Source of the DNA: Deltaproteobacteria bacterium
GTDB taxonomy: Bacteria; Bdellovibrionota_F; JAHFAK01
Assembly: GCA_023250585.1 (NCBI GenBank)
Contig: JAHFAK010000004.1
Span: 1 to 44,882 of the forward strand
DNA: 44,882 nucleotides
Reading direction: 5' to 3'
Of the stretch, positions 2,862-41,868 are shown piece by piece. Each line of letters starts with the position of its first letter. Within the stretch, counting starts at the first letter, position 1. A program made the translations under genes and the position numbers. Below the pieces are notes generated by a model that was given only the letters and a program-made list of their open reading frames with translations, did not search any database and was not told the origin of the DNA.

Positions 2862-2931
2862 ATATAGAAGTTACTTAACTAATCTCGTATTGCGAATCAA
2901 TAAAAAAGCATTGTAACAGCTCAGTAAATGG

Positions 2932-3058
2932 GGTAGTAAGGGAGTAGGTAAGTTCTAAAGAAGTATGTATATCGACGTCGCTTCCATAATACTTTTAAGA
3001 ACAGGAAAGCGCGCTCGATATACATACTTCTTTAGAACTTACCTACTCCCTTACTACC
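2932..3058. repeat. Long hairpin element, family 1, copy 1
   Basis: 44-bp perfect inverted arms 2932-2975/3015-3058 around a 39-nt core whose reverse complement matches copy 2 at 37/39. Confidence 0.95.
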
Positions 3059-3112
3059 TGAGGGATTACAAAGCATTACAATTTTTCCTGCAAGATACTA
3101 CACAATTTATGT

Positions 3113-24827: not shown

Positions 24828-24958
24828 TGAAGCAGGAGTGGGCGATATATGTTCTTTTTTAATTGTATATCGATCGCGCTTTCCTGTTCTTAAAATTATT
24901 ATGGAAGCGACGTCGATATACAATTAAAAAAGAACATATATCGCCCACTCCTGCTTCA
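24828..24958. repeat. Long hairpin element, family 1, copy 2
   Basis: 46-bp perfect inverted arms 24828-24873/24913-24958 around a 39-nt core. Confidence 0.95.
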
Positions 24959-40691: not shown

Positions 40692-40712
40692 ATAGACTCC
40701 TTTGTATATGTT

Positions 40713-40826
40713 ATGAGAGGTTATATATTCTTTTTTTGTTTTATATCGATCGCGCTTACCCCGTTCTTAGTATTTTTATGGAAGCGACGTCGATATAAAA
40801 CAAAAAAAGAATATATAACCTCTCAT
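40713..40826. repeat. Long hairpin element, family 1, copy 3
   Basis: 37-bp perfect inverted arms 40713-40749/40790-40826 around a 40-nt core homologous to copies 1 and 2. Confidence 0.95.
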
Positions 40827-40939
40827 TGAGCAGCTTCTACATAAATTATCTATATTTTTCTTGCAATTCTTTTTTTATCAATTTAATTACACAATAACTA
40901 CTGCGTGAAATGAAACATAATAAGGAGGCATTTCATTAA

Positions 40940-41868
40940 ATGAGTAAAAAAGGTTATACCCTCATGATCATTCCTGATAAAGGCACCAGAACAATAAAAA
41001 ACATTTCTCTTTCTCCTCGTATTATTACAATGCTTAAGCTTTCAGGCATACTGATAGGCTTTTGTCTTTTGGTTTCACTATTCGCTATATATCAAGGTTT
41101 GGAATATAAAAACGGATATGATCGAGTAAATAACGAGAATAAAGATCTCCGTGAAAATGTTGTGGCAATTCAGTATCAATTAAAGTCGATTGAGCGATCA
41201 TTTAATCGCATTAATGAATTTTCTAAAAAAGTAAAAATGTTAACAGACCTCGATAATGATTCTAAACAGCTTATGGCAATTGGTCCGTTAACCGAAGAAG
41301 ATGAATTAGCAATGTCTTTGCAAAAAAAAAAGTTTTAGAGGGATCGGTTCTTCCAAAAATTGATCATCTTATTGATCGTGCGAACGATCTTAATACTATT
41401 TCAGTTAATCTGTCAGAAAAATTAAATGGCTTGTATAATAATCTTAAAAATCGCGAAAAACTCTTAAAAGCTCTTCCAACGCTCTGGCCATCAAAAGGTT
41501 GGGTAAGTTCTGGTTATGGTTATCGGGAGAGCCCATTTACTGGAGCCGTTGCCATGCATGATGGGTTAGACATTGTTGCATCTGTGGGAGATAGCGTCTG
41601 TGCTCCTTCAGACGGCGTTGTATCTTTTACTGCTGAATTACCTGCCTATGGAAAAATACTCTATATTCAACATGGATATGGCATTGAAACTCGTTATGCT
41701 CATTTAAGTGCGATTTTGGTAAAAGCAGGACAGAAAATTCATCGAGGAGATAAGATTGCCCTCATCGGAAATACCGGGCGAAGTACGGGCCCACATTTGC
41801 ATTATGAAACACGAGTGAAAGCAGTGCCAAAAAATCCGCTGAGCTTTATCTTGGAAGAAATGCAATAA
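40940..41868 (+). pseudogene. M23-family peptidase (TM/coiled-coil + LytM domain) split by a -1 frameshift at an A10 run
   Basis: 40940-41338 encodes the TM and coiled-coil N-half; the -1 frame is open 41305-41868 with HDGLD, YAHL and STGPHLHYE; may be a slippage-expressed gene or a sequencing error. Confidence 0.7.

Follow-up and report, generated by a model that had tools for sequence, protein, structure and literature searches.

Complementary arms and an invertible centre in a new palindromic repeat family of an uncultured groundwater bacterium: probable DNA-level copying between arms

The hairpin at positions 40713-40826 of the stretch of DNA analyzed here (hereafter the window, 44,882 nucleotides) is one of about 80 copies of a non-coding palindromic repeat family in the genome of an uncultured groundwater bacterium. 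Its arms are probably kept complementary, and its centre flipped, by DNA-level re-copying between the arms, such that the arms drift while the centre is held by other means; we place the probability of this reading at roughly 0.65. The window is contig C156 of a 2.24-Mb, metagenome-type assembly of 164 contigs (35.8% G+C, 96.7% complete).

A repeat search of the window located the two arms of this hairpin, termed copy 3, at 40713-40757 and 40782-40826 (45 nt each, 93% complementary and separated by 24 nt) and returned two like hairpins at 24828-24958 and 2932-3058, which belong to copies 2 and 1, respectively. The outer 33 nt of the left arm (40713-40745) plus the core motif TCGA, 37 nt in all, are the reverse complement of the right arm, of which the outer part (40794-40826) is the perfect complement of 40713-40745. 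The outer end of the left arm is purine-rich, and the arm sequence is variable from copy to copy. The left core half, TCGATCGCGCTT (40746-40757, plus strand), pairs with the right core half, AAGCGACGTCGA (40782-40793, plus strand), save for a 3-nt internal loop, and these three core positions (TCGATCGCGCTT versus TCGACGTCGCTT) are the only non-pairs in the hairpin. Enclosed by the core is a 24-nt loop of the ACCCCG variant, ACCCCGTTCTTAGTATTTTTATGG (40758-40781, plus strand), the asymmetry of which orients the element. Folding of copy 3 as single-stranded DNA gave −42.1 kcal/mol (z = −13.6), and none of 200 shuffled sequences folded as well.

Copy 2 (24828-24958, plus strand) is a short element like copy 3, with 42-nt perfect arms and a core, and fills the spacer between two divergent ORFs. 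The initial annotation had set a 30-nt stretch of the inner arm of copy 3 beside its counterpart in copy 2. Both 30-mers proved correct, with five differences at positions 2, 8, 18, 19, and 22, and direct comparison of the opposite arms revealed the same five differences there, so the reported mirroring of every substitution is exact. The accompanying statement that no G-T pair occurs holds for the arms but not for the core, the internal loop of which contains one possible T:G pair. The core had been described as slightly drifted with its bulge pattern retained; both core halves are identical in copies 2 and 3, and the loop differs (TCCTGTTCTTAAAATTATTATGG in copy 2).

Inspection of the whole genome with a regular expression built on the two core halves gave 78 hits, which fall at 75 loci. 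With nhmmer, a centre profile added six loci, two with diverged but internally compensated cores, one symmetrised, one interrupted by Ns, and two truncated. The architecture is constant and comprises a left core half TCGA(G/T)CGCGCTT, a loop of 22-24 nt, and a right core half AAGCGACGTCGA (exact in 66 of the 78 regex hits), with arms of 30-43 nt, mostly 33-35 nt, on either side. The left-half form present in copy 3, TCGATCGCGCTT, accounts for 14 of the 78 hits and TCGAGCGCGCTT for 40. The core is a 12-bp GC-rich stem, and its 3-nt internal loop is the same throughout the family save for four symmetrised copies; the orientation of an element is set by this internal loop together with the loop, both of which are asymmetric. 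Loop and core variants are common to the two subfamilies, long (A) and short (B), into which the copies fall. In the outer 14 nt of the arms, the 5′ arm, read on either strand, is G-/purine-rich and often carries GGAG or GTAG, and the 3′ arm is CTCC-rich, a bias that holds even in short copies with otherwise unalignable outer arms. A small ORF running toward the loop (GGAG...ATGTTC in many arms) was considered and rejected, as neither frame nor stop is conserved, loops of 22-24 nt shift the frame, and the ATG is absent from many short copies. The outer arms were also rejected as guides to other loci, there being few extra 13-mer matches, mostly to other copies of the family.

A crude rule assigned 39 copies to the long form and 36 to the short form, at least two of those filed as short being really long. 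The long form consists of the hairpin within a chassis of unequal ends, GTAATCCCTCAGTTATT... and ...AACTCCCCCATTAACTGAGCTGTTAC, which are not mirror images of each other. Of the 33 long copies with both ends visible, 20 are bounded by perfect direct repeats, usually 8 nt and no shorter than 6 nt. Copy 1 (2913-3069, minus strand) is of this form, with chassis ends GTAACAGCTCAGTAA... and ...GGATTAC, and its core is oriented opposite to those of copies 2 and 3. An 8-nt target-site duplication, AAAGCATT (or AATGCTTT when read on the opposite strand), borders it at 2905-2912 on the left and 3070-3077 on the right. The corresponding site in the collinear genome of a sister species (G001) is empty, measuring 38 nt (contig C91, 3826-3863; L057) as opposed to 204 nt here. 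Because this collinear site is empty, the long subfamily is a true mobile MITE, and it has therefore moved after the split of the two species.

Around the short copies, including copies 2 and 3, no recognisable chassis ends, terminal repeats, or target duplications were seen. As judged from simple ORF calls and a crude classification of gene context, the 36 copies filed as short are distributed over tandem (23), divergent (8), and convergent (2) gene pairs, with 2 more at contig edges and 1 inside an ORF; for comparison, spacers between neighboring ORFs genome-wide number 1170 tandem, 234 divergent, and 245 convergent. The short copies fill tight spacers, typically lying 7-25 nt from each flanking ORF, and a hand count of core orientation relative to flanking tandem genes gave 12 in the same and 11 in the opposite direction. 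Their outer arms are nearly as different from copy to copy as unrelated sequence and have a GC content of 0.45 and a purine content of 0.69, versus a GC content of 0.29 in the flanks. No hairpin accompanies the sister-genome ortholog of the gene to the left of copy 3, where synteny is also broken, and not all short copies are therefore ancient. Synteny between the two genomes breaks exactly at the copy 3 hairpin in the window: the ortholog of the left-hand gene is on G001 contig C5 and that of the right-hand gene on C190, with different neighbors (40692-40712 and 40827-40940 compared). The motif ATTTTTCTTGCAATT, in the promoter region upstream of the right-hand gene, is conserved in the sister genome.

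The initial annotation proposed that mismatched and co-varying arm positions be counted over all genomic copies. Across 75 copies, the arms form 2575 Watson-Crick pairs, with 47 mismatches and 8 gaps; pairing is perfect in 50 copies, and at least one mismatch or gap is present in 25. Two interrupted copies, on C61 and C140, contribute 15 of the 47 mismatches, and their exclusion leaves 32 mismatches and 8 gaps in 2565 positions. This constancy of pairing accompanies extensive sequence change. Arms differ by 27% between copies of the long subfamily and by 49% between copies of the short subfamily, versus only 3.3 and 2.0%, respectively, within a copy (gaps counted), and the left arms are distinct in all 75 copies. 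Off-consensus cells are mirrored in the opposite arm in 236 of 281 cases in the long subfamily and in 440 of 465 in the short. Length changes behave in the same manner: depending on the copy, the arm contains an A or T homopolymer run of 2-8 nt, and in 70 of 75 copies the runs in the two arms are equally long. The mismatches comprise 12 G:T or T:G, 11 A:C or C:A, and 24 others; wobble pairs make up less than 0.5% of pairs, and G:T is not enriched over A:C. The many uncompensated mismatches or G-U pairs that had been named as evidence against templated copying were thus not found.

Mismatches are most frequent in the first 10 nt outside the core (23 of 40), and those near the core are often alleles common in other copies, as in the copies on C14, C12, and C55 (GAATTTCTA versus GTATTTATA). 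In the long subfamily, diversity is 0.22-0.25 in the inner arms, 0.24-0.25 in the non-palindromic ends, and 0.02-0.09 in the loop and core; these values derive from gapless slices, in which the arm figures are somewhat inflated by register shifts.

The centre of the element was found to lie in either direction. Two long copies, on C146 and C7, have ends and arms that are identical bar one or two letters, and the 47-nt centre of one is the reverse complement of that of the other. Among the 39 long copies, with the unequal ends as reference, 17 have the centre facing one way and 12 the reverse; the remaining 10 were unscorable, 4 having two short ends and 6 having one end unread. On a tree of the 29 scored copies, built from ends and arms with the centre excluded and weakly supported (17 of 26 inner branches open), orientation takes 12 changes, which is the maximum possible with 12 minority states. 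When orientations were shuffled on the tree, the 10 values listed, of 200 run, spanned 8-12 changes. Centre orientation is random on the tree of long copies. The core internal loop has been symmetrised in four copies and in both directions, to CGTCG at three loci and to GCGCGC at one, and compensated changes are found within the core itself (TCGA to CCGA/TCGG and CGCTT/AAGCG to TGGTT/AACCA).

A single locus is shared with the sister species, and the orthologous evidence is that of one copy, present in the sister assembly with a single arm. The G001 copy lies at a contig end and is cut in the loop (C178, 1-60; L002), and its partner arm was not found in the G001 assembly. The flank of this copy aligns to C117 of the present genome at 74% identity, and the C117 arm is about two-thirds identical to that of the G001 copy, having diverged by about a third. 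Both arms are nonetheless perfect in the present genome. The gene-proximal core half is AAGCGACGTCGA in G001 and AAGCGCGCTCGA here.

Template switching between the arms of an inverted repeat is reported to homogenise the arms and invert the spacer (PMC8604942). In a second report, template switching is proposed to create and fix perfect stems, to preserve them, and to account for compensatory changes that look simultaneous (PMC8794818), and a third reviews recombination and template switching as routes to concerted evolution in inverted repeats and tests this for short proteobacterial repeats (PMC5941160). Because arm homogenisation and spacer inversion together are the published signature of template switching or recombination, the mirrored changes and the inverted centres described above support arm-to-arm templated copying rather than independent compensatory point mutation, as the initial annotation had suspected.

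The observations can be accommodated by a model in which one arm is repeatedly re-copied from the other at the DNA level, so that exact complements would persist and a mutation in one arm would be either erased or mirrored. Such copying would likely proceed by template switching of the polymerase inside the hairpin as it is replicated, or by recombination between arms, and the centre flip would be an outcome of the same copying events. The arms could then drift at about the rate of the surrounding sequence, never looking mismatched. The constancy of the centre would have a separate cause, be it selection for function, exchange between copies, or both. We infer the copying mechanism, its action in place, and the cause of centre conservation from these patterns; repair of the hairpin is a further candidate process beside template switching and recombination, and some of the copying possibly took place at the birth of a copy. 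Fold-back copying outward from the core would predict the opposite of the near-core excess of mismatches. Read together, these mismatches and the variants common to both subfamilies hint at an exchange of centres between copies, to which selection on the centre is an alternative. The internal loop survives inside the hairpin in all but four copies, and therefore selection or a mechanistic boundary must be added to the copying. Drift and arm copying alone also do not explain the G-/purine-rich outer arms of the short copies, the diversity of which may stem from a source other than in-place drift.

Three other explanations for the matched arms were weighed. In the first, the hairpin would function as RNA, perhaps as a long double-stranded signal that directs the processing or stabilisation of operon transcripts, with selection fixing compensatory point mutations. 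The 23 of 36 short copies that lie between tandem genes, typically 7-25 nt from the ORFs, are probably transcribed; other intergenic palindromic repeats affect mRNA processing; and the G-rich stem base and conserved loop suggest constraint. An RNA stem should, however, tolerate G-U and purge A-C, and the near equality of the two (12 versus 11), with wobble at less than 0.5% of pairs, runs against this expectation, as does the near absence of one-base homopolymer bulges, which would be nearly cost-free in a 45-bp RNA stem. The asymmetric centre faces with and against transcription about equally (12:11), and the paired arms are as diverse as the unpaired ends, even though a two-step process passing through a harmful intermediate should slow paired sites. 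No Rfam family was matched at threshold, the sub-threshold matches being to eukaryotic microRNA precursors on both strands, as any long hairpin might give. At gathering scores, only a tRNA was found in the window, and at E values up to 1 only generic hairpin look-alikes appeared. A terminator-like tail was not found, a scan of copies 2 and 3 yielding no terminator-like site, and a promoter scan gave no hit inside the hairpins; the one hit returned is beyond the end of copy 3 (40854-40881, minus strand), and shuffled sequences gave at least as many. Selection on an RNA is thus a distinctly unlikely source of the matched arms. It is highly improbable that the perfect arms are an artefact in which a de Bruijn assembler merged arms sharing canonical k-mers into one consensus. 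The assembly is indeed of metagenome type and in 164 contigs, and both independent k = 31 contigs and contigs of the sister assembly end within hairpins. The same assembly nevertheless retains mismatches or gaps in 25 of 75 copies and arm-specific sequences that are distinct in all 75, and the whole hairpin, at 114 nt, is shorter than a usual read. Furthermore, independent k = 31 contigs from two runs extend 30 nt from unique flanks into each arm of copy 2 (24828-24857 and 24929-24958), stopping inside the arms, with no differing letter. The collapse of the two arms, raised in the initial annotation as a possible undoing of its interpretation, is accordingly unlikely. The stretch is present in contigs of four runs from one groundwater study, none of them recorded as RNA; for copy 3, none differed inside 40713-40826 among the matches listed, and pieces covering copy 3 were not among them.

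It is also conceivable, but unlikely, that the arms were made perfect when each copy was born, through a single-stranded folded intermediate of the REPIN/RAYT kind or through snap-back priming, so that only one arm was inherited. The most conserved part of the element is a hairpin that is imperfect and whose internal loop is fixed, a feature of the sort recognised by HUH single-strand transposases. Three RAYT-like proteins and one IS200-type TnpA are encoded in the genome, the short subfamily has no target duplication, perfect pairing starts right at the core, and every copy has an arm sequence of its own. Set against this are the four Y1-transposase loci, which have no family core, arm, or terminal-repeat motif nearby, and the RAYT-like proteins, which score 65-70 bits against a cut-off of 80 bits. 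Terminal repeats and 8-bp duplications, as found in the long subfamily, are usual for double-strand cut-or-copy transposition; the two ends of that subfamily do not mirror each other, and the locus shared with the sister species displays in-place divergence and a flipped centre. A separate proposal, that the outer arms are copies of the local flank produced by palindrome extension, is not favoured, given that their G-/purine-rich make-up is unlike the flanks and that arm length is nearly fixed at 33-35 nt. Re-copying between the arms at the DNA level is the reading that we prefer.

The genome was inspected for enzymes that might mobilise the family. The three RAYT-like tyrosine transposase genes encode 217 aa (L028, 1210-1863, minus strand), 189 aa (L029, 1450-2019, minus strand), and 224 aa (L030, 1384-2058, plus strand), and all three products match model NF047646 at 65-70 bits, below its 80-bit cut-off. 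No family motif was detected at these three loci, and no RAYT gene flanked by the repeat was found. The RAYT-like genes are single-copy, and one is flanked by small hairpins of another repeat (...GAAACGTGCCCGGCA...) that is also present on C20. Likewise, three DDE_Tnp_1 and four Y1_Tnp loci carry no family core, arm, or end motif, and a search of the genome for an IS110-type transposase gave no hit. The IS200-type element on C13 was rejected as a source, its ends being unrelated to the core. A full-length element combining the family ends with a transposase was not found in the 164-contig, 96.7% complete genome and may be unassembled. We regard it as improbable that the conserved centre is the recognition and nicking site of a RAYT-like or other enzyme that primes fold-back synthesis outward. 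Were this the case, a programmed rebuilding of one arm would free the arms to vary and flip the centre, and the family would be a mirror-image counterpart of REPINs.

Comparison with known systems indicates that both the process that matches the arms and the kind of repeat, a MITE- or REPIN-like hairpin, are already known. The quasipalindrome template switch of the Ripley model has two signatures, homogenised arms and an inverted spacer, both of which are seen here (PMC5941160, PMC8794818, and PMC8604942). The mirrored multi-site changes, the mirrored indels, and the lack of G:T intermediates also fit that process. Unlike the published cases, the present one involves about 80 copies of one family with arms of 33-43 nt, no event has been reconstructed on a tree of orthologues, and the centre resists both drift and correction. 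REPINs, hairpin-forming REP doublets associated with RAYT genes (PMC3116915), are the closest repeats so far described; they resemble the family in being multi-copy intergenic hairpin repeats of roughly 100 nt, and RAYT-like genes are present in this genome. In REPINs, the outer REP 16-mers are conserved and the middle is variable (PMC3116915), whereas the present family has the reverse arrangement of a conserved middle and variable arms. The family further differs from REPINs in that it flanks no RAYT-like gene and in that its long subfamily has terminal repeats and 8-bp duplications.

Among bacterial MITEs, those that form long hairpins include the Correia, ERIC, and Nezha-type elements. In common with these, the family is short, non-coding, multi-copy, and intergenic, and the long subfamily additionally shares terminal inverted repeats, 8-bp duplications, and an empty site in the sister genome. 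Short copies such as copy 3 differ in having no recognisable terminal repeats or duplications, and no transposase with matching ends was found. The attC sites of integrons are, as here, imperfect hairpins in which unpaired bases mark the strand and sequence varies while structure is kept. In attC, the conserved boxes are located at the stem base and not at its top, and the arms of the present family are perfect rather than bulged.

The family constitutes an unusually clean natural data set on how long perfect stems stay paired while their sequence changes, with some 80 copies in a single small genome, mirrored substitutions and indels in the hundreds, an absence of wobble intermediates, and a randomised orientation of the centre. 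The data set comes from a deep, uncultured lineage that is remote from the model organisms in which template switching was worked out, and it supports DNA-level arm copying rather than stepwise compensatory mutation. Hairpins at tight operon junctions may also affect transcripts. The more interesting question concerns the role of the invariant, asymmetric centre, which is a candidate protein-binding or processing site.

The distribution of the family is narrow. A scan of 40 relatives' genomes with a 16-mer, one mismatch allowed, gave one match in each of three; that in G001 is a real copy of the family, and the other two carry one mismatch each. In the sister genome, the left-core pattern gave only chance-level hits. 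Three hits of the two-part core pattern in genome contigs were rejected as chance, all being in coding sequence of unrelated high-GC genomes, and the same pattern gave no hit in metagenome contigs. An 18-mer search of metagenome contigs gave 17 hits, of which only one (L047) is real, and this is the half copy already seen in G001. The known range of the family is thus confined to this genus, represented by two genomes, and, having no Rfam match and having been found in this genus only, it is a new repeat family.

Side observations were also made on the chassis of the long subfamily. The same chassis ends (GTAAYNGCTCAGTTAATGGG...) also enclose another cargo, which is unrelated, is made of GGATCCCGTGGTCAAGCCACGGGAT-type hairpins, and comes in long and short versions (C14:27181-27342, C48:15297-15403, and C153:8779-8870), and a near-empty chassis of about 43 nt occurs, for example, on C60 and C101. 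From these arrangements, the chassis looks like part of a modular MITE system with exchangeable middles. At several sites (C42 at ∼20577, C82 at ∼8743, C61 at ∼2856, C140 at ∼140, and C12 at ∼222; also L027, 1160-1460), a sequence GGTGTGAAGAAATGAAGAGAGAGCTCC...CTGTCATTGCGA... abuts the chassis directly after ...GGGAGTAGG or ...CTCAG. This sequence also adjoins the IS200-type TnpA on C13 and has the look of an IS200/IS605-type element with a fixed insertion site in the MITE chassis. The copies on C61 and C140 have badly mismatched arms because this IS200/IS605-like element interrupts them.

The hairpins are a recurrent cause of contig breaks in the genus. Two independent assemblies of the sister organism (G001 and L047) end at the same loop position of the family copy. 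In the present genome, a run of Ns lies within the loop of the copy at ∼11640 on C44, and Ns are found just inside a chassis end at ∼9020 on C164.
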